DNA of 64,000 nucleotides from an uncultured Flavobacterium sp. (GCF_963925185.1 NZ_CAWURC010000027.1:26220-90219), one strand, 5' to 3'. Positions 4,525 through 16,792 are shown, counted from the stretch's first letter. Notes: generated by a model from the letters alone, not told the origin. Numbers and translations: made by a program.

Positions 4525-5856
4525 ATGACAAAAGAACAAATAATTTCCGACAGTAAAGAATTCAGTTTATTTTCCTGGTCAGCACAAGCAAGTGTAAATC
4601 CAATTGCTATCGAAAGAGCCGAAGGCGTGTATTTATACGAAATTGGGGGGAAACGAATCATCGATTTTTCGAGCGGATTAATGTCGGTAAATATCGGTCA
4701 CGGTGACCAGCGTGTGACTGCGGCTGTTGTCGAGCAAATGCAAAAAGTAAGTTTCGTGACACCAACTTGCACTACAGAAATTCGTGCTAAATTATCCAGA
4801 AAACTAGCCGAAATCTGTCCGGGTGATTTGAACAAAGCTTTTTATACTTTGTGCGGAACTTCTTCTGTCGATAATGCCATTAAATTAGCCCGACTTTATT
4901 CTGGAAGACACAAAATCATTGGAAGATACAGAGCCTTTCACGGTGGTTCTATTGGCGGAATGTCCGTAGGTGGTGATCCAAGAAAACTGGCCAACGATTC
5001 ACAACAAATGCCAAATGCAGTTCTTCTGGATGATCCCTATTATTACTTTGGAATGAATCATTTAGACGATGCAACAAAATTAAATTTAAGTTTAGAATAT
5101 GTTGAAAGAGTCATTCACTTTGAAGGTAAAGCCAATATTGCTGCCTTTATTTTTGAAGGCGAAAGCGGTTCTTCAGGTTGTTTACATTATCCAAGCGGCT
5201 ATTTAAAAGGCATCAAAGCCCTTTGCGAAAAATACGGAATCCTGTTTATTGCTGATGAAGTTATGAGCGGTTTTGGTAGAACTGGAAAATGGTTCGGATT
5301 TGAAAACCACGATATCATTCCGGATATGGTTTGTATGGCTAAAGGATTGACTTCTTCATACTTGCCACTTGGATGTTTAATGGTTTCCGATAAAATTGCA
5401 GCTAAATTTGAAAACTCACCAATGATGATTGGATTGACTTACAATGGCCATCCGGTCTCTTTGGCGGCAGCATTAGCTGTAATAAACATATACGAAAGTG
5501 ACAAATTAATAGAAAACACTCGAAAAATGAGTGCGTATCTAGAAACTAAAATTGAGGAAATGAGAAGTAAGCACCCAAGTATGGGAGCTTTCAGAAATAC
5601 AGGACTTCTGGGCTGTTTAGATATCTTGAAAAATAAAACCACAGGAGAACTTATTGCTCCTTATAATGCCAGCGGTGATGATTTGAAAGTAACGAATCTA
5701 ATTGCTGCGAAAGTTAGAGAATTAGGATTGTATACTTTTGTGCGTTGGGGTTATATTTTTATCGCTCCTCCTTTGTGCATCAACGAAAAGCAAATAGACG
5801 AAGGCTTAGCAATTATCTCGCAAGCATTAAGCATTGCTGATGAATATGTGGTATAA
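4525..5856 (+). CDS. Class III PLP-dependent aminotransferase (beta-alanine/taurine:pyruvate type)
   Basis: IDFSSGLMSVNIGHG, FIADEVMSGFGRTG, DMVCMAKGLTSSYLPLG (PLP lysine), TYNGHP. Confidence 0.9.
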   Translation: MTKEQIISDSKEFSLFSWSAQASVNPIAIERAEGVYLYEIGGKRIIDFSSGLMSVNIGHGDQRVTAAVVEQMQKVSFVTPTCTTEIRAKLSRKLAEICPGDLNKAFYTLCGTSSVDNAIKLARLYSGRHKIIGRYRAFHGGSIGGMSVGGDPRKLANDSQQMPNAVLLDDPYYYFGMNHLDDATKLNLSLEYVERVIHFEGKANIAAFIFEGESGSSGCLHYPSGYLKGIKALCEKYGILFIADEVMSGFGRTGKWFGFENHDIIPDMVCMAKGLTSSYLPLGCLMVSDKIAAKFENSPMMIGLTYNGHPVSLAAALAVINIYESDKLIENTRKMSAYLETKIEEMRSKHPSMGAFRNTGLLGCLDILKNKTTGELIAPYNASGDDLKVTNLIAAKVRELGLYTFVRWGYIFIAPPLCINEKQIDEGLAIISQALSIADEYVV

Positions 5857-5871
5857 TGAAATTTAATTCCA

Positions 5872-5913
5872 TAAAAATACCTCAAATAGTGTCACACTTT
5901 TTGGGGTAGTTTA
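5872..5913. repeat. Imperfect palindrome between convergent genes; probable bidirectional terminator, resembles fused IS3-type ends
   Basis: aaatacctcaaatagtgt / acactttttggggtagttt inverted arms. Confidence 0.45.
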
Positions 5914-5978
5914 AACTAGATTTGGAGTTTTTTTTAAAACTTATAAAAAACAATCTTTGTAAACGTTTTAACCTAAAA

Positions 5979-6524
5979 TTATTTAGCTTCAAAAATAAAA
6001 TTAATTGAGATCTTAGCATTATCGGCAATTTTACTTTTTACTAAACTAGGGATTTCAATAGCGTAATCTTGTAGTTTTACTAGAATAACGCTCACTACAT
6101 TAATTTTTCCAGCATTTTGAGCAAGACTAATTTTAGTTTTAATTCTTTTCGTTACTCCATGCATAGTTAATTCTCCCTCTAAATCAAAGACCGTTTTAAT
6201 TGATGATAACTTTGAGACCTCAAAATCTATAATTTCCCCTTTGAAAGTTGCTTTTGGAAATTGATCACTTTCGACATAGTTTTCATTAAAATGCTCTTCC
6301 ATCAAAGGAATTTTAAACCTAAAACCTTTCACTAATACTAAAACAGCAATTTCGCCTGTTGCAGCATCAAAAAGACAAGAAGCAGTATTATGCTTAGCTG
6401 CAATTTCTTCAAAGGAAGGCATTGAAGCTTCAAATTTAATTTCTCCAGAACGAGTTATCATCTTTTGAGAAAACGAAACAGTCGATAAAATCAAACATAA
6501 AAGTAAAGTTTTATTCTTTATCAT
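5979..6524 (-). CDS. YceI family lipid/polyisoprenoid-binding protein
   Basis: Signal peptide; LMEEHFNENYVESDQFPKATFKG and GELTMHGVTK motifs. Confidence 0.9.
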   Translation of the reverse strand: MIKNKTLLLCLILSTVSFSQKMITRSGEIKFEASMPSFEEIAAKHNTASCLFDAATGEIAVLVLVKGFRFKIPLMEEHFNENYVESDQFPKATFKGEIIDFEVSKLSSIKTVFDLEGELTMHGVTKRIKTKISLAQNAGKINVVSVILVKLQDYAIEIPSLVKSKIADNAKISINFIFEAK

Positions 6525-6536
6525 AGCTATTGAATT

Positions 6537-6884
6537 TTAATTAGGATATCCGTTTGCTGCCCATTTCTTGATGATATTTATATTGGTCTGAGGCATTCTT
6601 CCGCTTTGTGGCATAACTGCACCACAGGATTGATCATCAATTCTGCAAATTACAGCGCCATTTTCAGTAGCATCCCTTAGTTGGACATAAGTTTCCATTA
6701 TAGGATATTGCTTTCCTGCTGCACTATGACAGGAAAGACAGTTATTCCCAATAATAGGTTTAACATTCGAAGTGTATGTCGGATTAGCAACTTCTCCTGA
6801 AATTTCATCATAAGTTGATGAATCACATGAAAACCCAACATAAAAAGTAATCATCAGAATAAAAATAATTTTTAAAGTTTTCAT
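6537..6884 (-). CDS. Monoheme cytochrome c lipoprotein
   Basis: Lipobox GFSC, heme motif CLSCH, distal MP motif (AVMPQSGRM). Confidence 0.8.
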   Translation of the reverse strand: MKTLKIIFILMITFYVGFSCDSSTYDEISGEVANPTYTSNVKPIIGNNCLSCHSAAGKQYPIMETYVQLRDATENGAVICRIDDQSCGAVMPQSGRMPQTNINIIKKWAANGYPN

Positions 6885-6886
6885 AT

Positions 6887-7750
6887 TTAAAATACTCTAT
6901 ATAAGTTAAACCCAAAATAAATTCCTTTACCATCCGTAATTCCGGTGGCGTTTGTAAAATAAGTAATGTCGTTCATCGCTTGGCTATTCGAAAAAACCAA
7001 TTGAAATACATGACCTCCAGTTTCTATGTCTAAACCAATTGTAGCTGGATTGTGATACAAACTTGTTTCCCTCGCGTTCAGCCTAAAAGTGTATTCCATA
7101 TTAAGACTAATCCTTTTTGATAATTTATATCTTCCACCAAGTGCTAAAAGAAAGTCATCCGATTCTTCAAACATGGGTTCATACAAATTTTTATGAATAT
7201 AAATTGGATTCAATTCCATAGACAAAGAATTCGAAAATTTTCTAGAAATTGGCAATTGCGTACTAAAAGCAAACCGATTAGATGTTTTCAATAGCGGAAA
7301 TTCATCCTCACTTAACTGGGAATTAATATCCATCGTATTATAACCCACAATAGTTACCGGAAAACCATTCACTTCTTGATTCGCAAATTTATATTTTGCA
7401 GTGAACTCGTAATTTTTATTTAAGGTGTGGCGAGAAAACCCAACGGTTAACCATTCTGTCGCACCGTAAAGACCGCCAATTTTACTATTAGCATTATCGA
7501 ACCCAAAGAAGTTATCAAAACCTTCTGTTAAATCTCCAAAACGATGTGCTACTATAAAATACCATTCTCCTTTCGAAGCCAGTTTCGTTGATTGCATTGT
7601 ACAAACTTGCAATCCTTTGAAAGCAGCTGTTTCAATTTCTTTTTTAGAAATTGTATCTGTATCCAACTCTTTGAACAAATCATCTTGTGCATTAACAATA
7701 CTAAAATAAAAAATAAAAAATAATGAGAACGCAATTTTAGATAAATTCAT
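6887..7750 (-). CDS. DUF5777 family outer-membrane beta-barrel protein
   Basis: Signal peptide; HRFG, GLDIETGGHVFQLVFSNS, terminal FGFNLYRVF; likely start ATG 7750. Confidence 0.85.
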   Translation of the reverse strand: MNLSKIAFSLFFIFYFSIVNAQDDLFKELDTDTISKKEIETAAFKGLQVCTMQSTKLASKGEWYFIVAHRFGDLTEGFDNFFGFDNANSKIGGLYGATEWLTVGFSRHTLNKNYEFTAKYKFANQEVNGFPVTIVGYNTMDINSQLSEDEFPLLKTSNRFAFSTQLPISRKFSNSLSMELNPIYIHKNLYEPMFEESDDFLLALGGRYKLSKRISLNMEYTFRLNARETSLYHNPATIGLDIETGGHVFQLVFSNSQAMNDITYFTNATGITDGKGIYFGFNLYRVF

Positions 7751-7752
7751 TT

Positions 7753-8145
7753 TTAATTCAATTTTACTATTAAACATTGATCTAATTTTAACTCTTCTAA
7801 TAGGTCATCATAACCCGTAACTCTTCCTTTTATTTTTACTTGACTATTAAGTACTATCTGTTCCGATACTTGCAATTGACAAGAAACTTTGCCGTCTAAT
7901 GTAATGACATTATCAGTCACACTGGTAACTTTTCCAGTAACCTCAACCGCTTTGTTCAAATATTTTTTTGTTGCCATTTCAGTATTGGCAGAAAACTCTG
8001 CAAAAACATCGCTTGCCGATACACTAAACTCAGATGTTTCTTTTTCTAAATCTCTTGCACCGCCAGTCATTATATAACTATAAGAAAGAAATCCCACAAT
8101 AAGTATAACTGCAAATAACAAGATAATTTTAAGTTTTTTATCCAT
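7753..8145 (-). CDS. Membrane-anchored OB-fold protein (tRNA_anti-like)
   Basis: N-terminal TM helix; KKYLNKAVEVTGKV and VKIKGRVTGYDDLL..LKLDQC; likely start ATG 8145. Confidence 0.75.
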   Translation of the reverse strand: MDKKLKIILLFAVILIVGFLSYSYIMTGGARDLEKETSEFSVSASDVFAEFSANTEMATKKYLNKAVEVTGKVTSVTDNVITLDGKVSCQLQVSEQIVLNSQVKIKGRVTGYDDLLEELKLDQCLIVKLN

Positions 8146-8207
8146 AATTTTAAAAAAAATAGAGTTTACAATAAAATAAACTCTATAAATTATTGATTTA
8201 TATTTTT

Positions 8208-8969
8208 CTAATTCACAATAACTTTTTTCCAAGATTTTTCAGAATCGTTTTGCAATTCTAAGAGATACACCCCTGACTGCATACCATTCACATCAACTGT
8301 AACTTCTCTGGCATCATCCATCACGTCAATTGTTTTAACCAAAGAACCTGTTTGATTGTAGAGTTTTACTTTTGATAAATTAGTTCTGGTTTTAATATAA
8401 AATGCTCCCGACGCAGGATTTGGATAAATTGATGTTGCGTTTAAAGAAAAATCTTCAACTCCAAGAGTGCTAAAGGTTCCTGATGCAAACCCTCTATTAC
8501 CACCGTGATTAGCTAGCGATGTACTTATCGAACCGGAGCGCGCCCAAGCTAAATCAATAGAATTGGTAGAAGCGTAGGGCAATTGAAAATCATTAGAATC
8601 AGAATTTGTTAAATCTCTTTCTAGAGTTAAGGTTCTAACACCGGTTGCAACAGTATTGCTTACTGTTGACCAATTTTGACTAGAATCAGTGGCTGGAGCC
8701 GCATACCCAACATAATTTCTATCAGACAATGCAGTAGTATAAACAAGAACATCGCCGTCTTGCATTCCAAAACCCGATTGAACACCTAAGCCCAATCCAA
8801 ACCATCTATCCGAAGGACCACTTAAAACCAAAGTTACTTTGGAAGTATCATTATTCAAAGTAAAATTAGCCGTAAAATTAGAACCAAGACTGATATCTCC
8901 CGTCGACTTTGATTGCGAAAATGCAGATAAAACCAAAAAACAAAATAATAGGCTAGTAATTTTTTTCAT
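8208..8969 (-). CDS. DOMON-domain protein with T9SS type A C-terminal sorting domain
   Basis: Signal peptide; WFGLG..GM.DGD and LAWA...HG DOMON motifs; C-terminal IYPNP...SGVYLL...KKVIVN. Confidence 0.85.
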   Translation of the reverse strand: MKKITSLLFCFLVLSAFSQSKSTGDISLGSNFTANFTLNNDTSKVTLVLSGPSDRWFGLGLGVQSGFGMQDGDVLVYTTALSDRNYVGYAAPATDSSQNWSTVSNTVATGVRTLTLERDLTNSDSNDFQLPYASTNSIDLAWARSGSISTSLANHGGNRGFASGTFSTLGVEDFSLNATSIYPNPASGAFYIKTRTNLSKVKLYNQTGSLVKTIDVMDDAREVTVDVNGMQSGVYLLELQNDSEKSWKKVIVN

Positions 8970-8975
8970 AGTAAT

Positions 8976-9494
8976 TTATTTTAATAGGTTTATAATTTCT
9001 TCATTATTAGAAAAAACAGCATATTCAAAAGCTGTTTTGTTCTGTTTGCATTTAATTTCTTTGCTGGCTCCCGTTTTTACTAATTTTTTGACCATTTCAA
9101 CATTTTTAAATTGAACGGCAAGCATTAAAGCTGTTATTCCATTGGCATCTGTTAAATCGAGATTTACACTTTTATTAAATAGTTCGTCAACCAGTTGAAA
9201 TTGATTTTTCATTACACAAGCCATTAAAGCCGTTCCATTTTTAGAAACATAATTCAAATCTGCTTGATTGTTGATCAAAAATGTAGCAACTTCTTGATTT
9301 CCTCTATAACAAGCCAAAATGAGCATACTTGATCCATTATCATCAACTGCATTGACTATGCTTTTATCTTTATCAAAAAGCAACTTTATTTCAGATAAAC
9401 TTCCTTTTCTAGCTACATCAAAACAACTATTGTTTTGGGAAAAAACTACATTAATAGCTAGTAGCAAAACTAGTAGACACTTTTTTTTAGACAT
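8976..9494 (-). CDS. Exported ankyrin-repeat protein
   Basis: Signal peptide; repeats SSMLILACYRGN, GTALMACV, GITALMLAV, KTAFEYAV. Confidence 0.9.
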   Translation of the reverse strand: MSKKKCLLVLLLAINVVFSQNNSCFDVARKGSLSEIKLLFDKDKSIVNAVDDNGSSMLILACYRGNQEVATFLINNQADLNYVSKNGTALMACVMKNQFQLVDELFNKSVNLDLTDANGITALMLAVQFKNVEMVKKLVKTGASKEIKCKQNKTAFEYAVFSNNEEIINLLK

Positions 9495-9633
9495 ATTTAC
9501 TATTTAATTAGCCAAATTAGTTAATATTGAAATTTATTTATGATAAACATTTGTTAATTTAATGTTAGTAATTTTCAAGCACTCAAATACAAAATTAGAA
9601 TAAGAATTTGTACTATAATACTGCTTATTCCTT

Positions 9634-10631
9634 ACCCGTTGGGTGTAATTAAATTATTTGATTTTTAATATTGTTTATTGGTCTATCAAAAATGAATTTA
9701 TTTACATATTGAACCAATGTTAATGCTGTTATTTTTGCTAATATTCTTGTTTTAAATCCTTCAAAAGATTTAGCGTAATTGTTTCTAATTTTGAACTGGT
9801 CACATAATTGAGAAAATAATGTTTCAATTCTTTTTCTTGATTTTCTAAAGATATAAGCCTGTGGTTTATAATCTATTTGATTTTTTCTTTTTGGTGGTTC
9901 TAATTTGATATTTACCGTTTGAAACAAATCCAATTGAATAGTTTTTGATAAATAACCTCTATCTCCAAGTAGCACACAATCAGACATTTGTTGTTTTATA
10001 TTCTTCAAAAAATGTACATCATGAACTTCTGCTTTTGTAATATCTAATGAATGAAAAATACCTGATACAGAACAAACTCCGTGAAGTTTATAACCATAAA
10101 ACCAAGTGTTTTGTGAAGCACAAAATCCTTTTGATGGAGCTGCCTCAAACTCTTTTTTACAGATTTTAATTCTTCGATGAAGAGCAAATTTGCAAATCTC
10201 TAAGGGCATACTATCAACAATAAAGTAATCTTCAAACTCCAAAAAACGAGATGCTAATTTTAACCTAACTTCTTCTGAAAATAAAAATAATTTTCTTCTT
10301 CTTTTATTGAACTGACTTCGCTCAATTAAATTTGGAATTTGACTAATGTCTACCAATTTAAACAATGAGTTTTCACTGTCAATCGACATAAATTCAGCTG
10401 TCAAACTCAATGCAATAATCTCTAAATCAGACATTTTGTTCTTTCGACCAACTCCAGATTTATATTCTAATTCACAATTCAAAGAACTTATAACTTCTAA
10501 AACTCTTAAATAATTTTTAACTATATTTGTCATAAATATTGGTTGTTTAGCGACTTCAAGATACTGAATTTCAGTGTCTTGACCAACATTTAATCAATTT
10601 ATTTTACTTTAAATAATTGCACCCAACGGGT
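9634..10631 (-). mobile_element. IS982-family insertion sequence, 998 bp
   Basis: IR ACCCGTTGGGTGTAATTA (9634-9651) vs TAATTGCACCCAACGGGT (10614-10631), 17/18 match; 9-bp direct repeat TTATTCCTT at 9625-9633 and 10632-10640. Confidence 0.95.
9649..10533 (-). CDS. IS982-family DDE transposase
   Basis: 294 aa intact; IVDSMP, GYKLH, LGDRGY, RKRIETLFSQL carry the D-D-E triad. Confidence 0.92.
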   Translation of the reverse strand: MTNIVKNYLRVLEVISSLNCELEYKSGVGRKNKMSDLEIIALSLTAEFMSIDSENSLFKLVDISQIPNLIERSQFNKRRRKLFLFSEEVRLKLASRFLEFEDYFIVDSMPLEICKFALHRRIKICKKEFEAAPSKGFCASQNTWFYGYKLHGVCSVSGIFHSLDITKAEVHDVHFLKNIKQQMSDCVLLGDRGYLSKTIQLDLFQTVNIKLEPPKRKNQIDYKPQAYIFRKSRKRIETLFSQLCDQFKIRNNYAKSFEGFKTRILAKITALTLVQYVNKFIFDRPINNIKNQII

Positions 10632-10703
10632 TTATTCCTTATAAAATTTTAAAAAAAACTAAAATAGCAGTGCTTAAAATAATTCAAATTCAAATTATCG
10701 ATT

Positions 10704-10834
10704 TCAAAAAACCAATAACCCAAACTCCATTAAAGTATTCACGGGTTTCGAATACCAAAACAATTCAAAATCTTTAAATCACTTTCGAAATGAGTTTTAA
10801 ACTCCTGAAAAAGAGAAGTTTTAGTATTTGAAAT
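10704..10834 (-). pseudogene. Orphan 3' end (about 43 codons) of the B12 radical SAM gene
   Basis: Reads ISNTKTSLFQEFKTHFESDL-(frameshift)-DFELFWYSKPVNTLMEFGLLVF*, versus VSNAKTYSFQEIKSDFETHLEDFELFWYSKPVNTLMEFGLLVF* at 14588-14720. Confidence 0.9.
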
Positions 10835-10843
10835 CTATAAATT

Positions 10844-11359
10844 TTAAAATTTAAACTCCAATTGAGTATTAGGGTTGTTTAATCTTCCACTTTTGCGTTT
10901 GCCAAAAAGTTCAACATGAACGATATTCATTTGATCTTCGAAGATGTCACAAAGAATACTGTCCTCTATTTTTATTTTTTCAAAAGGTTTTGCAGGTTCT
11001 ATTTCTAAATATACATTGACAACCTCTCGATCAATTTCGAAACCTATATACTTTTGGGATTGTTTTTTATCGTTTATTGCGATTTGCAAATGATTTTGCA
11101 TGTATTGCTTTATAATAAAATCCATTTGGTTGTGCAAATCAGGAGCAGTAAAATCAATTTTGGTTTTGTTTTGTTTGCGCAGTGCATTTTCAAAATCATC
11201 GGCATATAATTTACATAAAATCTCAATACTTTTTTGTTTGCTATTAAATGATATTTCTGCAGTACTTACGTGTAATGGATGAATATCAAAAGTGTTAAAA
11301 GAATGGAAACCAAATAATAAAATGAAGAATAATACTGTTTTTGAGTATAAAAAATACAT
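10844..11359 (-). CDS. DUF6702 family exported protein
   Basis: Signal peptide followed by HPLHVS; ADDFENALR, FEDQMNIVHV. Confidence 0.8.
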   Translation of the reverse strand: MYFLYSKTVLFFILLFGFHSFNTFDIHPLHVSTAEISFNSKQKSIEILCKLYADDFENALRKQNKTKIDFTAPDLHNQMDFIIKQYMQNHLQIAINDKKQSQKYIGFEIDREVVNVYLEIEPAKPFEKIKIEDSILCDIFEDQMNIVHVELFGKRKSGRLNNPNTQLEFKF

Positions 11360-11447
11360 GATAAATAATATTTTTGCTAAATGAATAAAAATACAATACT
11401 TTTATCGTCCAAAAGTAATAAATGCTAGCCAATAAAACAGAACTTAA

Positions 11448-12035
11448 ATGCCATTAGAAGATTTTTTATTTTATTTTCAAATAGGCTGGTCACACATGGT
11501 GAGCTTTGATGCACTCGATCATCAATTGTTTATTCTGAGTTTAATAGCCATATACACTCTTTCCGATATTAAAAAAATTATTATACTAGTTACCGCCTTC
11601 ACCATCGGTCATTCGATAACTTTAGTTTTAAGCGTAATAGATGTTTTTCGCTTGCAAAGCAACTGGGTTGAATTTTTAATCCCGTGTACTATTGTTATTA
11701 CAGCGTTGAGTAATATTACAAAAATAAAATATAGAACCAATTTAACTACTATTAAATACTTTTTAGCAATGGGTTTTGGATTAATCCACGGTATGGGTTT
11801 TGCAAATACCATACGCATGATTTTGGCTAAAGATCAAATTATTGGATGGGGTTTATTGGGTTTTAATATAGGTTTGGAAATTGGGCAATTATTTTTTGTA
11901 GCCTTTCTTCTATTTTTTACAACATTAGCTCTGAAATACTTTAAAGTAAAAAAATCCAATTGGGTATTATTTATTTCCGTTGCCATATTTAGTCTGTCAT
12001 TACAAATGGCTATAAAACGAATTCCTTTAAATTAA
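11448..12035 (+). CDS. HupE/UreJ family membrane protein
   Basis: DHQLFILSL, TAFTIGHSITL, FGLIHGMGFA, FNIGLEIGQ motifs. Confidence 0.9.
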   Translation: MPLEDFLFYFQIGWSHMVSFDALDHQLFILSLIAIYTLSDIKKIIILVTAFTIGHSITLVLSVIDVFRLQSNWVEFLIPCTIVITALSNITKIKYRTNLTTIKYFLAMGFGLIHGMGFANTIRMILAKDQIIGWGLLGFNIGLEIGQLFFVAFLLFFTTLALKYFKVKKSNWVLFISVAIFSLSLQMAIKRIPLN

Positions 12036-12056
12036 TAATAATAATAATAATAATAA
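12033..12056 (+). repeat. (TAA)8 microsatellite linking the hupE/ureJ stop to the M1 peptidase start
   Basis: taa x8; first unit is the stop codon, last A is the A of ATG 12056. Confidence 0.9.
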
Positions 12057-14443
12057 TGAACAAATTTACAAAAACAGTGTTGCTGATGACTTTTATAAGT
12101 CAGGTAACAATGGGACAAAATATTTTAAATAATCCGGGAAGTAATCACGGAAATAAGTTTGAACAGTTGGGAAGTATTTTAACAACTCCCAATGAACAGC
12201 GCACTGCAAGCGGGGCTCCTGGTGCTAAATACTGGCAACAACGCGCGGATTATAACATTAACTGCGAACTAGACGAAAAAAACTTGACTTTAATCGGAAG
12301 TGAAACTATTACTTACTTTAATAATTCACCTGATGTATTGACCTACGTTTGGTTACAACTTGATGAGAATGAGCACAACAATTTAAAAAATGCCAACTAT
12401 CAAAGCGCAAGTATTATGCCTACAAAAAGCAACAACACTTTGGTAGACAATAATTTAGAAAGTAAAAATCCAAACGACAACGGTGCGGGAATTAACATAG
12501 TAAATTTAACCGATGCTACAGGGAAAAAATTAAAATATACTATTAACAAAACAATGATGCGCATAGAAATTCCTGAATTAAAATCAGGACAGCAATTTGT
12601 TTTTAATGTTGATTGGAATTACAAAATTACAAATCGTATTGCAGATGGAGGCCGAGGAGGCTATGAGTTTTTTCCAAACGAAAAAAATTATATTTTTACA
12701 ATGTCACAATGGTATCCTCGCTTGTGTGTATACAGCGATTTTCAAGGATGGCAAAACCATCAATTTACTGGAAGAGGTGAATTTGCATTAACTTTTGGTA
12801 ATTTTAATGTAAAAATGACCGTTCCAGCCAATCATATCATTACTTCAACTGGGGAATGTACCAATTATAATACTGTATTAACACCCTTACAATTAGCTCG
12901 TTACCAAAAAGCACAAACAGCAACTACACCTTTAGAAGTAGTTACATTGGAAGAAGCCCTACTATCGGAACAAAACAATACAAATGCTAAAAAAACATGG
13001 ATATATAAAGCCAACAATGTGCGAGATTTTGCTTGGGGTTCTTCTCCAAAATTTGTCTGGGATGCTATGTCACTAAGCATAAAAGACAAAAAAGTAATGT
13101 GCATGAGTTTTTACGGCAAAGAAGCTTATGGCTTGTATCGGAAATTTTCGACTCATGCTGTTGCACATTCTATAAAAACATATTCCGATTTTACAATCCC
13201 ATATCCATATCCTGTAGCTCAAAGTGTAGAAGCAGCCAACGGCATGGAATATCCAATGATTTGTTTCAACTATGGCCGTACAAGTGCCGATGGCTCTTAT
13301 AGTGAAAGTACTAAAAACGGAATGCTTGGAGTAATAATACACGAAGTAGGCCACAACTTTTTTCCCATGATAATAAACAGTGACGAACGCCAATGGAGTT
13401 GGATGGATGAAGGATTGAACTCATTTGTAGAATATTTAACAGAAGAACTTTGGGACAATAAATTCCCAAGTAAAAAAGGTCCCGCTTATACAATTGTAAA
13501 TTACATGAAATTGCCTAAAGATCAATTAGAGCCAATTATGTCGAACTCTGAAAATATTATAAACTTCGGCCCTAATGCCTATTCTAAACCAGCTACTGGA
13601 TTGAATATATTGCGTGAAACAATTATGGGAAGAGAATTATTTGATTATGCTTTTAAAGAATACGCAAAACGTTGGGCGTTTAAACATCCTACACCTGCTG
13701 ATTTTTTTCGAACTATGGAAGACGCTAGCGCAGAAGATTTAGATTGGTTTTGGAGAGGATGGTTTTATGGTACAGATCCTTGTGACATTGCTCTAGAAAG
13801 TGTGAAATTTGCAAAAGCAGACTACACTCCCGTTGCTGTTGAAGATAAAAGAGATAGAAAGAACCGTAACGATAAACCAATGATTAATACTTTTGAAGAT
13901 ATTTCAAAAATTAGAAATCGCACTTCAAATGATTTGAAATTCTATACTGATATTGATTTAGATGCTAGAGATTTCTATTGGAAGTATGCACGTGGTTTGG
14001 TTGAAATAGATTCTACTTTGATACTGAAAAAAATGCCAGATCCTGAAATTTTACCCGCCGAAGAATTTACTGCCGAAGAAAAAGAAAAATATAGCAATAT
14101 GTTCTTTTATGAACTTAACTTTGCCAACAAAGGAGGATTAGTTATGCCAATTATCGTTGAATTCACATTTAAAGATGGAACACAATTAATTGATAAAATT
14201 CCTGCGCAAATTTGGAGGCTTAATGAATTAAAAACATCAAAATTTTATGTGCATGACAAAGAGGTGGCTTCTATAAAATTAGATCCAATGCTCGAAACCG
14301 CTGATATAGATGTAAATAATAATGTTTGGGGAGCAGATACAGTTGAGCCATCGAAATTACAAATGTTTAAAGCACGTAATGGAGCTAAACCGGCTAGAGG
14401 ACAATCAGCTGGACAAAACCCTATGCAGTTGGAAAAGAAATAG
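12056..14443 (+). CDS. Secreted M1 family zinc metallopeptidase
   Basis: Signal peptide; GMEYP, HEVGH-X18-E (WMDEG), AYSKP. Confidence 0.92.
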   Translation: MNKFTKTVLLMTFISQVTMGQNILNNPGSNHGNKFEQLGSILTTPNEQRTASGAPGAKYWQQRADYNINCELDEKNLTLIGSETITYFNNSPDVLTYVWLQLDENEHNNLKNANYQSASIMPTKSNNTLVDNNLESKNPNDNGAGINIVNLTDATGKKLKYTINKTMMRIEIPELKSGQQFVFNVDWNYKITNRIADGGRGGYEFFPNEKNYIFTMSQWYPRLCVYSDFQGWQNHQFTGRGEFALTFGNFNVKMTVPANHIITSTGECTNYNTVLTPLQLARYQKAQTATTPLEVVTLEEALLSEQNNTNAKKTWIYKANNVRDFAWGSSPKFVWDAMSLSIKDKKVMCMSFYGKEAYGLYRKFSTHAVAHSIKTYSDFTIPYPYPVAQSVEAANGMEYPMICFNYGRTSADGSYSESTKNGMLGVIIHEVGHNFFPMIINSDERQWSWMDEGLNSFVEYLTEELWDNKFPSKKGPAYTIVNYMKLPKDQLEPIMSNSENIINFGPNAYSKPATGLNILRETIMGRELFDYAFKEYAKRWAFKHPTPADFFRTMEDASAEDLDWFWRGWFYGTDPCDIALESVKFAKADYTPVAVEDKRDRKNRNDKPMINTFEDISKIRNRTSNDLKFYTDIDLDARDFYWKYARGLVEIDSTLILKKMPDPEILPAEEFTAEEKEKYSNMFFYELNFANKGGLVMPIIVEFTFKDGTQLIDKIPAQIWRLNELKTSKFYVHDKEVASIKLDPMLETADIDVNNNVWGADTVEPSKLQMFKARNGAKPARGQSAGQNPMQLEKK

Positions 14444-14466
14444 AAACACTATTTTTCTCATAAAAT

Positions 14467-14507
14467 AAAAAAGCTGTACAACATTTATTTATTGTACAGC
14501 TTTTTTT
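14467..14507. terminator. Bidirectional intrinsic terminator
   Basis: aaaaaagctgtacaa / ttgtacagcttttttt between convergent genes. Confidence 0.85.
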
Positions 14508-14587
14508 ATTTTCCTTTATTTATAACTTGAATCTAGCCTTCAATACTTATTCCATTTAAAAAAAGAGCAATGAATGATGCTTTTTTT

Positions 14588-16792
14588 TTAGAATACCAAT
14601 AACCCAAATTCCATTAAAGTATTCACGGGTTTCGAATACCAAAACAATTCGAAATCTTCTAAATGAGTTTCAAAGTCGGATTTAATTTCTTGAAAACTAT
14701 AGGTTTTAGCATTGGAAACCGAAATATTTTCGAGCATTTTTGCCAGCCATTCCCCTTCATTTTTGCCAGTTTGAATGGTAAAACTTTCTTTCTTGTCGTG
14801 AAAAGTCAAAGTCATCATTTCCCAAGAATTTCCTTTTTTGGATTTTGTGAAATATTCTACAATTGGCTTCCCTCCTAGCCAAATAATTTTTGCAGTTAGT
14901 TTTGTGTTAAATTCTTGATCTTCTTCCAAAGCATTGGCAATAAAATCGGGACGGACTTTTGTTTTCGGGATTTTAAAGTCGAACCATTCCTGCAATTCGT
15001 AGTCAAAGCAAATCCTGTGCATAAAATTGAATAAGGATTTCTTTAATCCAAAACTGAATTTGTCGTGATCAATTCCTGTTTTATCAACATAATTAATATC
15101 ATTATTTGCGAAAGTTCCAATAATTTCTGTTTCTTTCACAACACCAAATTTCTCCGGATGCATTCCCACAGGACTGTGCGCCGTCATCGCAAATTGATGC
15201 CAAAAACCCGATTGCAAAACGCCAATTTCAAACAATTGTCGCACAATTTCTAGACTGTCTATCGTTTCCTGAACCGTTTGCGTTGGATAACCATACATCA
15301 AATAAGCGTGAACCATAATTCCGGCATCGGTAAAATTTCTAGTGACTTTTGCTACTTGTTCCACCGTCACGCCTTTGTCAATTAGTTCCAATAATCGGTC
15401 CGAAGCGACTTCTAGCCCACCAGAAACGGCGATACATCCCGAAGCTTTAAGTAGTAAGCATAAATCTCTTGTGAAACTTTTCTCAAATCGAATGTTCGTC
15501 CACCAAGTGACTGATAATTTCCTGCGAAGAATTTCGAGTGCCAGAGCGCGCATCAAAGCTGGAGGAGCTGCTTCATCTACAAAATGAAACCCATTTTGTC
15601 CTGTTTGCGCTATCATTTCTTCCATTCGATCACACAGTAAATTGGCTGCAATAGGTTCGTAAATTTTAATATAATCTAATGAAATATCGCAAAATGTGCA
15701 TTTCCCCCAATAACAACCGTGAGCCATCGTGAGTTTGTTCCATCGACCGTCACTCCACATTCGGTGCATTGGATTCACAATTTCAATTACCGAAATGTAT
15801 TTATCCAAAAGCAAATCCGAATAATCGGGTGTACCAACTTCTGATTGTTTATAGTCACTTCTTGTGGAATTGTTTTTATAAACTACTTTGTCGTTTTCAA
15901 GAAGGAAAGTTCTCTTGAATTCCCCTTCGACAAGCTTAGGTTGACAAACGGCTTCGAATAATAGTTCTACTGGTAATTCGCCATCATCCAAAGTGATATA
16001 ATCGAAGAACTCGAAAACGCGAGCATCCGAAAGCGAACGCAATTCGGTATTAGGAAATCCGCCACCCATAGCAATTTTGATGTTTGCATGGTGTTTTTTT
16101 ACATATTGAGCAGAACGAAAAGCTGCATATAAATTCCCCGGGAAAGGAACCGAAATCAAGAATAATTCGGGTTGGATGGTTTCTATTTTTGCTGCCAGAA
16201 TCGAAATTAAAATATTGTCAATATAAGTAGGTTCTTCTTGTAAAGCCAAATATATTTCGTCGAAAGAATTAGCGCTTCTGCCCAAACGTTCCGCATACCG
16301 GCTGAACCCAAAATTAGCATCGACACAATCCACAATGAAATCCGAAATATCTTCGAGATATAGAGTGGCCAAATGTTTGGCTTTATCCTGCGTTCCCATT
16401 GTTCCGAAAGCCCAATCAGTATCTTCGAGTTGCGCAAACCGAGATGCTTCCGGCAAGAAATCTTCCTGACAAATTTGCAATGCCAATGTTGGATTTTTAC
16501 CTTGTAAAAAAGAAATAACACCATCAATCGTTTTAATATATTCGTCTTGTAAAGCTAAAATACGGGAGGAATTATCCGAAATTTCGGAAACTTCAAACTT
16601 TAAACTTTTAACTTTAAACAAATTTTGAAGTCCTTCCTTCGAAAATAATTTTAAAATCACTTCTATACCCAAATCTGCTTGTGTTGCTGGAATATTTTTG
16701 GTGTTCAGAAAACCTTTGATATAAGCCGTTGCCGGATACGGTGTATTCAGTTGGGTAAACGGTGGCGTGATTATAAATACGTTGGTTTTCAA
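14588..16792 (-). CDS. B12-binding domain radical SAM protein
   Basis: CYWGKCTFC (CX3CX2C), SVPFPGNL / GGGFPNT cobalamin-binding segment, FHFVDEA, GGLE. Confidence 0.9.
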   Translation of the reverse strand: MKTNVFIITPPFTQLNTPYPATAYIKGFLNTKNIPATQADLGIEVILKLFSKEGLQNLFKVKSLKFEVSEISDNSSRILALQDEYIKTIDGVISFLQGKNPTLALQICQEDFLPEASRFAQLEDTDWAFGTMGTQDKAKHLATLYLEDISDFIVDCVDANFGFSRYAERLGRSANSFDEIYLALQEEPTYIDNILISILAAKIETIQPELFLISVPFPGNLYAAFRSAQYVKKHHANIKIAMGGGFPNTELRSLSDARVFEFFDYITLDDGELPVELLFEAVCQPKLVEGEFKRTFLLENDKVVYKNNSTRSDYKQSEVGTPDYSDLLLDKYISVIEIVNPMHRMWSDGRWNKLTMAHGCYWGKCTFCDISLDYIKIYEPIAANLLCDRMEEMIAQTGQNGFHFVDEAAPPALMRALALEILRRKLSVTWWTNIRFEKSFTRDLCLLLKASGCIAVSGGLEVASDRLLELIDKGVTVEQVAKVTRNFTDAGIMVHAYLMYGYPTQTVQETIDSLEIVRQLFEIGVLQSGFWHQFAMTAHSPVGMHPEKFGVVKETEIIGTFANNDINYVDKTGIDHDKFSFGLKKSLFNFMHRICFDYELQEWFDFKIPKTKVRPDFIANALEEDQEFNTKLTAKIIWLGGKPIVEYFTKSKKGNSWEMMTLTFHDKKESFTIQTGKNEGEWLAKMLENISVSNAKTYSFQEIKSDFETHLEDFELFWYSKPVNTLMEFGLLVF
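16588..16619. repeat. Heptamer tandem repeat (AAACTTT-like x4.5) inside radical SAM CDS
   Basis: aaacttc aaacttt aaacttt taacttt aaac; encodes FKVKSLKFEVS. Confidence 0.75.

Follow-up and report, generated by a model that had tools for sequence, protein, structure and literature searches.

A modular cell-envelope gene cassette of Flavobacteriales with a possible role in one-electron transfer between outer membrane and cell surface

Results

We analysed a 64,000-nucleotide (nt) stretch of DNA from an uncultured Flavobacterium sp. (GCF_963925185.1, NZ_CAWURC010000027.1:26220-90219; the whole of this stretch is hereafter called the window), in which six tightly packed genes on the minus strand, between positions 5979 and 9494, encode proteins that appear to be exported or anchored in the membrane. 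From the sequence alone, a first reading (the original prediction) had suggested that these genes form an operon that may encode an uncharacterised haem or electron-transfer module of the envelope, in which electrons would run from a quinone through YceI, a cytochrome c and a barrel to a haem protein at the surface. All six open reading frames (ORFs) are indeed present, and their domains were assigned with Pfam and NCBIfam profiles. In the order in which they lie on the minus strand, the features are:

8976-9494, minus strand: exported ankyrin-repeat protein, 172 amino acids (aa); Ank_2, 91.7 bits
8208-8969, minus strand: DOMON protein with a type A C-terminal domain (CTD) of the type IX secretion system (T9SS), 253 aa; candidate haem b ligands M69 and H155
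8151-8186, minus strand: hairpin of 11 bp with U8 behind it, between the DOMON and OB genes, a possible intrinsic terminator or attenuator; -13.8 kcal/mol
7753-8142, minus strand: OB-fold (tRNA_anti-like, PF12869) protein with an N-terminal membrane anchor, 129 aa; 38 bits
6887-7750, minus strand: DUF5777 (PF19089) outer-membrane beta-barrel, 287 aa from the ATG at 7750, with an alternative ATG at 7777; 256 bits
6537-6884, minus strand: monohaem c-type cytochrome lipoprotein, 115 aa; lipobox Cys20, CLSCH and a distal MP
5979-6524, minus strand: exported lipid-binding protein of the YceI family, 181 aa; PF04264, 51.9 bits

From the ankyrin gene to the YceI gene, the intergenic gaps are 6, 65, 2, 2 and 12 nt, and the G+C content of the six-gene region is the same as that of its flanks. 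The N-termini were inspected by eye, without a signal-peptide predictor, and each of the six proteins has the export or anchor signal that had been predicted for it. The ankyrin, DOMON, barrel and YceI proteins begin with hydrophobic stretches ending in SQ or AQ, which look like cleavable signal peptides, the OB protein begins with what looks like an uncleaved anchor, and the cytochrome has its lipobox. The ATG at 8142 was taken as the start of the OB protein because its homologues, which share the motif KGR..GYDDLL..KLDQC, are 125-135 aa long; a sequence search with this protein against the PDB gave marginal matches only.

The barrel matches the DUF5777 profile over its full length (256 bits against a cut-off of 23.1), and its AlphaFold2 (AF2) model (predicted local distance difference test score, pLDDT, 87.4) has 12 strands. 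With Foldseek the model resembles NanC, KdgM, FapF and OmpG at E-values of 1e-6 to 1e-5, and also Tsx, a COG4313 channel and FadL. The protein ends in FGFNLYRVF, and its motifs HRFG and DIETGGHVFQ are invariant; in the model, a helix after strand 1 bears the invariant HRFG...FFGxD, and DIETGGH sits at a tight turn on what the topology makes the periplasmic side.

In the cytochrome, the lipobox Cys20, the CxxCH and the distal MP are each at least 90% conserved among 84 homologues, 81 of which have a single CxxCH, and acidic and Ser-rich residues follow the lipobox Cys. Public records list this protein as hypothetical and assign it to no Pfam family; none of the curated families reached its threshold (PccH scored 22.2 against 24.4), and a sequence search of the PDB gave a marginal match, again to PccH (4rlr, E 1.3). 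The YceI protein passes its cut-off clearly (51.9 bits against 23.7), has the conserved motif LMEEHFNENY and weakly matches a solved YceI structure by sequence (5ixg, E 0.014).

To see the cassette in its relatives, we used 81 loci from species-representative genomes, fetched with the barrel as anchor; DOMON and YceI genes elsewhere in these genomes lie outside the counts that follow. The locus search used a narrow barrel alignment, an alignment of all DUF5777 paralogues being too diverse, and gene counts come from clustering all ORFs of the 81 loci, which cover Flavobacterium, Chryseobacterium (Weeksellaceae), Aequorivita, Winogradskyella, Maribacter, Algibacter, Flavivirga and others. DUF5777 itself is widespread: a word-based search returned more than 7,500 homologues, and 57 of the 101 genera sampled from the same family have the domain, against none of 14 control genomes. 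Besides the barrel (81/81), the loci contain the cytochrome (80/81), YceI (79/81), OB (61/81), ankyrin (38/81) and DOMON (38/81) genes, in as many as 28 distinct arrangements. Two pairs recur within this variety. YceI directly follows the cytochrome in 82 of 83 cases, and OB lies directly upstream of the barrel in 46 of 61, the remaining 15 having a T9SS gene or the ankyrin-DOMON pair in between. The full order seen in the window (ankyrin-DOMON-OB-barrel-cytochrome-YceI) recurs in seven loci, including those of F. nackdongense and F. chungnamense. The genes are thus co-conserved far beyond chance and in shuffled orders, as the original prediction would have it, and a linkage that is kept while the order changes argues for function rather than inherited synteny. 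With moderate confidence, and going by gene content and its conservation, we regard the cassette as a modular redox system of the cell envelope that is common in Flavobacteriales and of which the window carries one version.

The variable part of the cassette is the protein with the T9SS tail. Where DOMON is missing, another T9SS-tailed gene often fills the same slot. Six of these genes encode a plastocyanin-type cupredoxin of about 190 aa, with His...Cys-x2-His-x2-4-Met in 6/6, and eight encode a DUF2271-like protein, six of which have the flavinylation motif [ST]GA[ST] and six an adjoining ApbE gene; one further gene encodes a Reeler-domain protein with CTSCH. Experiments have shown that ApbE flavinylates DUF2271, which is a carrier in electron transfer outside the cytosol (PMC8238504). 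When partner identity is mapped onto a maximum-likelihood tree of the barrels, it has to switch no fewer than 27 times; for DOMON alone, well-supported branches require 12 or more switches. Even some sister barrels have unlike partners, for instance a Reeler-CxxCH protein beside a DOMON and a cupredoxin beside a CBM96-like protein. Since four chemically different one-electron cofactors would occupy one slot, we argue that the job of this slot is surface electron transfer; this swapping of partners, as read from motifs and gene positions, is the best evidence at hand and points to electron transfer to the cell surface.

Ankyrin and DOMON genes are adjacent and on the same strand in 38 of the 38 barrel-anchored loci that have them, and neither occurs there without the other. 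The position of the pair itself varies: it may precede OB, separate OB from the barrel, follow either YceI or the barrel, or sit on the opposite strand. The tail of the DOMON protein is a clear T9SS sorting domain (Por_Secre_tail, PF18962, 58.6 bits against a cut-off of 27; TIGR04183, 44.2 bits against 23), its AF2 model is of high confidence (pLDDT 92.6), and Foldseek matches the CTD to that of a T9SS substrate (8glk_D, template-modelling score, TM, 0.82) and the DOMON to 4zel (dopamine beta-hydroxylase, which holds a DOMON) and 6jt6 (the haem b cytochrome domain of a pyranose dehydrogenase). A profile sequence search with the protein against the PDB returned T9SS tails only. The Met in FGMQDGD (M69) and the His in ANHGG (H155), singled out in the original prediction as possible haem ligands, are both present and invariant in all 39 cassette-linked DOMONs, and at least 90% conserved in 76 diverse members of the DOMON family that share 28-58% identity. 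The model puts Met69 in the loop that follows the W-F-G-L-G-L-G strand, and no part of the domain is modelled with less confidence than this loop. From this conservation, ligation of haem b by the Met/His pair is plausible.

The ankyrin protein keeps its hydrophobic N-terminus in 40 homologues. In Pseudomonas aeruginosa, the exported ankyrin AnkB is encoded beside the haem protein KatB and is needed for its full activity. The likeness lies in an exported ankyrin gene next to the gene of a haem protein (here a candidate one); the partner is a catalase there, whereas it is a DOMON here, and a role for the ankyrin of the cassette is read solely from its adjacency in 38/38 loci. The strict coupling recalls AnkB-KatB and suggests that the ankyrin may be a periplasmic helper for cofactor loading or stability of the DOMON before T9SS export.

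The same DOMON subfamily is also found in larger proteins. A 4,632-aa protein from a public metagenome (P0241) has 20 matched stretches of it, and several giant multi-DOMON proteins of 1,300-3,000 aa have 5-9 copies.

The word operon in the original prediction needs qualifying on one point. Within the 65 nt that separate DOMON from OB, U8 comes directly after a hairpin of 11 bp (-13.8 kcal/mol, z = -2.64 against shuffles). This hairpin is shared with F. chungnamense and is present neither in F. nackdongense nor in locus L054. Because of its position, the six genes may be two adjacent units, ankyrin-DOMON and OB-barrel-cytochrome-YceI, possibly with read-through. A scan for sigma-70 promoters did no better than shuffles (30 found, 25 expected), this type of scan not covering Bacteroidota promoters, and an Rfam search of positions 5700-10900 gave no match.

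Upstream of the ankyrin gene lies a complete insertion sequence of the IS982 family (998 bp, 9634-10631), encoding a 294-aa transposase (NF033520, 247.5 bits) and showing 94% complementarity between its 18-nt terminal inverted repeats; 139 bp separate it from the start of the ankyrin gene. Because these 139 bp still align with the region upstream of the F. nackdongense ankyrin gene, the native promoter may be intact despite the insertion. In relatives, a radical SAM gene directly precedes the ankyrin gene. In the window, genes for DUF6702 (10844-11359), HupE/UreJ_2 (11448-12035) and an M1 peptidase (12056-14443) separate the intact radical SAM gene (14591-16399) from 37 codons left over from its 3' end (10707-10817), so that 10707-16399 resembles an insertion with a duplicated end of the radical SAM gene at its borders.

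At about 20 of the 81 loci, in freshwater as well as marine genera, the cassette is flanked in either orientation by genes for an extracytoplasmic function (ECF) sigma factor, a FecR anti-sigma factor, a TonB-dependent receptor (about 840 aa) and a lipoprotein of 340-390 aa with a lipocalin-like C-terminus; the loci listed with the ECF/FecR/TonB set are L056, L059, L063, L073, L082, L093, L095, L096, L110, L115, L116, L120, L123, L124, L127 and L131. This set may be the signalling system of the cassette. In all sampled Chryseobacterium loci, a regulator of the Crp/FNR type lies directly upstream. Beside the cassette in the window, there is neither an ECF/FecR/TonB-dependent receptor set nor a Crp/FNR-type regulator.

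DUF5777 barrels also occur in two other settings. A paralogous cassette consists of OB, YceI and a DUF5777 barrel 25-28% identical to that of the window (L033-L035, L037-L039, L042, L043, L045, L047 and L048); it adjoins a divergent membrane regulator of the LytTR type, often with an HMA-like protein, large LTD-repeat proteins and Lipoprotein_15 proteins that have cupredoxin-like Cys-x2-His-x2-Met repeats. A third context (L036, L044, L049, L050 and L051) combines DUF5777 with a monohaem cytochrome and a six-CxxCH lipoprotein that partially matches MtrC/MtrF-like and c552-like proteins, together with a small Tat-signal protein, an NrfC-like 4Fe-4S protein, NrfD, a 290-aa membrane protein and a cbb3-type cytochrome c. 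By its gene content, this third context is a candidate quinol-linked redox cluster of the outer membrane. Both settings tie the barrel family to redox proteins.

Discussion

How far the cassette is new depends on which part of it is considered. The original prediction knew of no described system with this combination, and for the whole set this stands: our literature search found no paper on DUF5777, a search combining YceI, DOMON and cytochrome found nothing relevant, one for YceI in flavobacteria found nothing useful, and in one for DOMON in Porphyromonas the matches were to an author's surname. It does not stand for the pairing of YceI with a cytochrome, which has been described for yceJ-yceI and LcoA-BcnA (PMC9113575) and for Cbp2D/E (PMC8981238). 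As this pairing is common to our cassette, to b561-YceI and to Cbp2D/E, we regard the cassette as an extracytoplasmic cytochrome-YceI redox pair, much extended by a barrel, an anchor and a redox partner delivered by T9SS. When compared with Mtr/Pcc, Cyc2, b561-YceI and Cbp2D/E, membership in each of these systems fails on a defining feature.

In Burkholderia cenocepacia, the cytochrome b561 LcoA and the YceI lipocalin BcnA protect the envelope from lipid peroxyl radicals (PMC9113575). Like the cassette, LcoA-BcnA and the E. coli pair yceJ-yceI have a cytochrome gene directly upstream of a secreted YceI gene, act in the envelope and are proposed to carry out redox chemistry on lipophilic molecules. 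Unlike the cassette, however, they use a four-helix b561 membrane cytochrome where ours has a 115-aa monohaem c-type lipoprotein, and only in the cassette is the pair joined to a barrel, an OB anchor and a T9SS protein, with no PsrA-type reductase linked to it. No cytochrome b561 gene is found among the six genes or the listed flanks of the window. For the YceI-like X158 domain, binding of ubiquinone-8 has been described, as has its fusion with c-type cytochrome domains in the secreted protein Cbp2D (PMC8981238). Cbp2D/Cbp2E of Cellvibrio japonicus and X158 of Saccharophagus degradans differ in being large secreted multidomain proteins of Gammaproteobacteria, with CBM2 modules and a place in cellulose and lytic polysaccharide monooxygenase (LPMO) biology (PMC8981238, PMC12542752), whereas the domains of the cassette are separate small genes, without a carbohydrate-binding module in Pfam, and are tied to a barrel and T9SS. 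The X132 domain of Cbp2D was considered as a DOMON and rejected, being a c-type cytochrome domain.

MtrCAB, Pcc and Cyc2 share with the cassette an outer-membrane barrel genetically coupled to one or more c-type cytochromes, to which the cassette adds a surface redox protein (for the Mtr context, see PMC8805035). The structural differences are large. The barrels of Mtr/Pcc have at least 20 strands and enclose a multihaem cytochrome, and Cyc2 is one polypeptide with a larger barrel. In contrast, the cassette barrel is modelled with 12 strands and its partner has one CxxCH, which does not allow a haem wire through the pore; because the predicted pore is too small for the cytochrome, and this has a single haem, both a Mtr/Pcc-type conduit and a plug model were ruled out. 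Compared with Cyc2 by architecture, the cassette differs in that its cytochrome and barrel are separate genes 2 nt apart.

For the surface partner, the closest parallel is the haem b DOMON of cellobiose and pyranose dehydrogenases (6jt6), which has the same beta-sandwich and is an extracellular one-electron carrier, the role we propose for the cassette DOMON as well; its Met in the loop after a W-x-G-x-G-x-G strand and its His in a late loop may have their counterparts in M69 and H155. The cassette DOMON differs in being bacterial, stand-alone and exported by T9SS, with no fused dehydrogenase and with marginal sequence similarity. The sister cassettes, though not the window, offer a further parallel in the DUF2271-like proteins with [ST]GA[ST] next to ApbE in the DOMON slot; in the systems described so far, DUF2271 is accompanied by PepSY-like membrane proteins and DUF4198 (PMC8238504), whereas those of the sister cassettes have a T9SS tail and are found with DUF5777, the cytochrome and YceI.

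Taken together, gene neighbourhoods, conserved residues and predicted folds lead us to propose, as a reading with roughly an even chance of being right, that the cassette carries out one-electron transfer linking the cell surface with the periplasmic side of the outer membrane. Two pairs would form its fixed core, namely the monohaem c-type cytochrome lipoprotein followed by the YceI binder of lipids or quinones, and the inner-membrane-anchored OB protein followed by the 12-strand DUF5777 barrel. In this scheme the cytochrome would serve as redox partner on the periplasmic side and YceI as the holder of a lipophilic carrier, for instance menaquinone; the barrel would be a docking site or a lipid or lateral gate rather than a sheath round the cytochrome. 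The variable part would be a T9SS-exported protein with a one-electron cofactor, here the DOMON with its haem-b-type Met/His pair, which the periplasmic ankyrin would help to load or stabilise before export. Prompted by the ubiquinone-8 found in the YceI-like X158 domain (PMC8981238), we speculate that a lipophilic quinone from YceI might cross the membrane via the barrel. The use of such a system is probably protective or assimilatory, with surface oxidants, Fe(III) or Cu(II) as what it may reduce, and not respiratory. The cofactors, locations and contacts given here, like the substrate and the direction in which electrons would flow, are put forward on the strength of the gene content, the co-conservation, the conserved residues and the folds described above. 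Of the linear chain in the original prediction, surface electron transfer has gained from the swapping of redox partners, whereas the specific order from quinone to surface haem has lost ground, the predicted pore being a cofactor-less, NanC/KdgM-like one of 12 strands and no quinol-oxidising component of the inner membrane being encoded. The boldest version of our proposal would make the cassette a kind of electron transfer across the outer membrane that has so far gone unrecognised, works without a haem wire and is widespread in Flavobacteriales, perhaps also outside this order. A quinone delivered by YceI to the cofactor-less 12-strand barrel would carry electrons across the membrane and so connect the monohaem lipoprotein with swappable T9SS redox proteins (haem b DOMON with its ankyrin, cupredoxin, haem c Reeler or flavinylated DUF2271); we offer this version tentatively and consider it more likely wrong than right.

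Several observations weigh against electron transfer to the surface. The six genes encode no inner-membrane component that oxidises quinol or NADH, the barrel has no cofactor motif in addition to having only 12 strands in the model, and a single haem on each side cannot bridge the outer membrane by tunnelling alone. Some partners have no known redox cofactor (LTD proteins and the one CBM96-like protein), in 25/81 loci there is no T9SS partner within 400 bp, and type A cargo of T9SS may be released rather than kept on the surface. As for the DOMON, its Pfam score (32.3 bits) is just below the cut-off (32.7), its best structural match, dopamine beta-hydroxylase, is a non-haem DOMON, and in an hhalign comparison with a cellobiose dehydrogenase cytochrome-domain sequence, whose numbering matches the published Met65/His163, M69 fell on the known ligand Met65 but with a non-significant E-value of 0.12. 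The possible terminator divides the six genes, and the function as a whole is read from neighbourhoods, conserved residues and predicted folds.

The main rival is a defence of the outer membrane against lipid peroxidation, by analogy with LcoA-BcnA, in which YceI would trap lipid peroxyl radicals or oxidised lipids, the cytochrome would reduce them, the barrel and OB would reach outer-membrane lipids and the surface redox protein would quench oxidants. We consider this unlikely but a serious contender. It would account for the cytochrome directly before YceI in 82/83 cases, the order known from lcoA-bcnA and yceJ-yceI (PMC9113575), and it suits an aerobic freshwater bacterium facing photochemical oxidants, as well as the Crp/FNR-type regulator of the Chryseobacterium loci. 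The exported ankyrin next to a candidate haem protein also recalls the peroxide defence of AnkB-KatB. However, the cytochrome is a c-type lipoprotein and not an inner-membrane four-helix b561, which implies another source of electrons; there is no linked gene for a PsrA-like aldehyde reductase, and the cupredoxin and flavinylated partners are not known as radical scavengers. A second possibility, which we judge distinctly improbable, is that the cassette transports a hydrophobic molecule (menaquinone, carotenoid, flexirubin or a nutrient) across the envelope, with OB as anchor, YceI as carrier, DUF5777 as gate and the cytochrome and T9SS protein as accessories. The barrel fold does resemble small substrate channels (NanC, KdgM, Tsx, COG4313 and FadL), the paralogous cassettes are OB-YceI-DUF5777 triads without a detected cytochrome, and YceI proteins bind polyisoprenoids (as PMC8981238 reports, citing Vincent et al.). 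Yet the cytochrome is present in 80/81 loci of the window's own subfamily, with CxxCH and MP conserved, the linked T9SS proteins are mostly redox proteins, and no part for energy coupling (ABC transporter or TonB box) was recognised.

Haem or iron acquisition is, in our view, very unlikely. Here the DOMON would be a secreted hemophore or a surface ferric reductase, the barrel an uptake channel and YceI and the cytochrome periplasmic handlers of haem or iron. The invariant Met/His pair of the DOMON would fit, as would the ECF sigma/FecR/TonB-dependent receptor set that adjoins about 20/81 loci, and for DUF2271/ApbE systems a link with the reduction and assimilation of iron has been reported (PMC8238504). 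A hemophore role, however, leaves the replacement of DOMON by a cupredoxin or a flavoprotein unexplained; a pure hemophore was judged unlikely for this reason, and the haem-handling option of the original prediction fits these copper and flavin replacements poorly. Moreover, no haem oxygenase, HmuY/HusA-type protein or inner-membrane transporter for iron or haem is linked, and the window lacks a TonB-dependent receptor or ECF set beside its cassette. Finally, the six genes may not be one system at all, the ankyrin-DOMON pair being an independent surface unit that happens to neighbour a four-gene envelope cassette. The hairpin with U8 between DOMON and OB and the absence of the pair from 43/81 cassettes, with its variable position in the others, speak for this. 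Against it, the pair lies beside the cassette in 38 loci (chosen via the barrel) from at least three genera (Flavobacterium, Chryseobacterium and Winogradskyella) and from metagenome-assembled genomes (MAGs), and linkage in such varied positions is hard to explain without selection for it. Of the explanations considered, we rank coincidence as the remotest.

To conclude, single-electron transfer between the outer membrane and the cell surface is the reading that we prefer for a cassette which is widespread, yet has all its parts annotated as hypothetical. Bacteroidota are major degraders in water, soil and guts, and we know of no electron route across the outer membrane in this phylum. If our reading is true, the cassette would be a new architecture for extracellular electron transfer without a multihaem cytochrome; DUF5777 and a large family of T9SS DOMON proteins would gain their first known function, and proteins with redox cofactors would prove to be among what the type IX secretion system delivers. 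If lipid peroxidation were the answer instead, the LcoA-BcnA principle would extend to another phylum with different parts. The swappable partner is a direct experimental handle on these questions, and the cassette could explain iron or copper reduction, or the defence of the outer membrane against oxidants, in aerobic flavobacteria.

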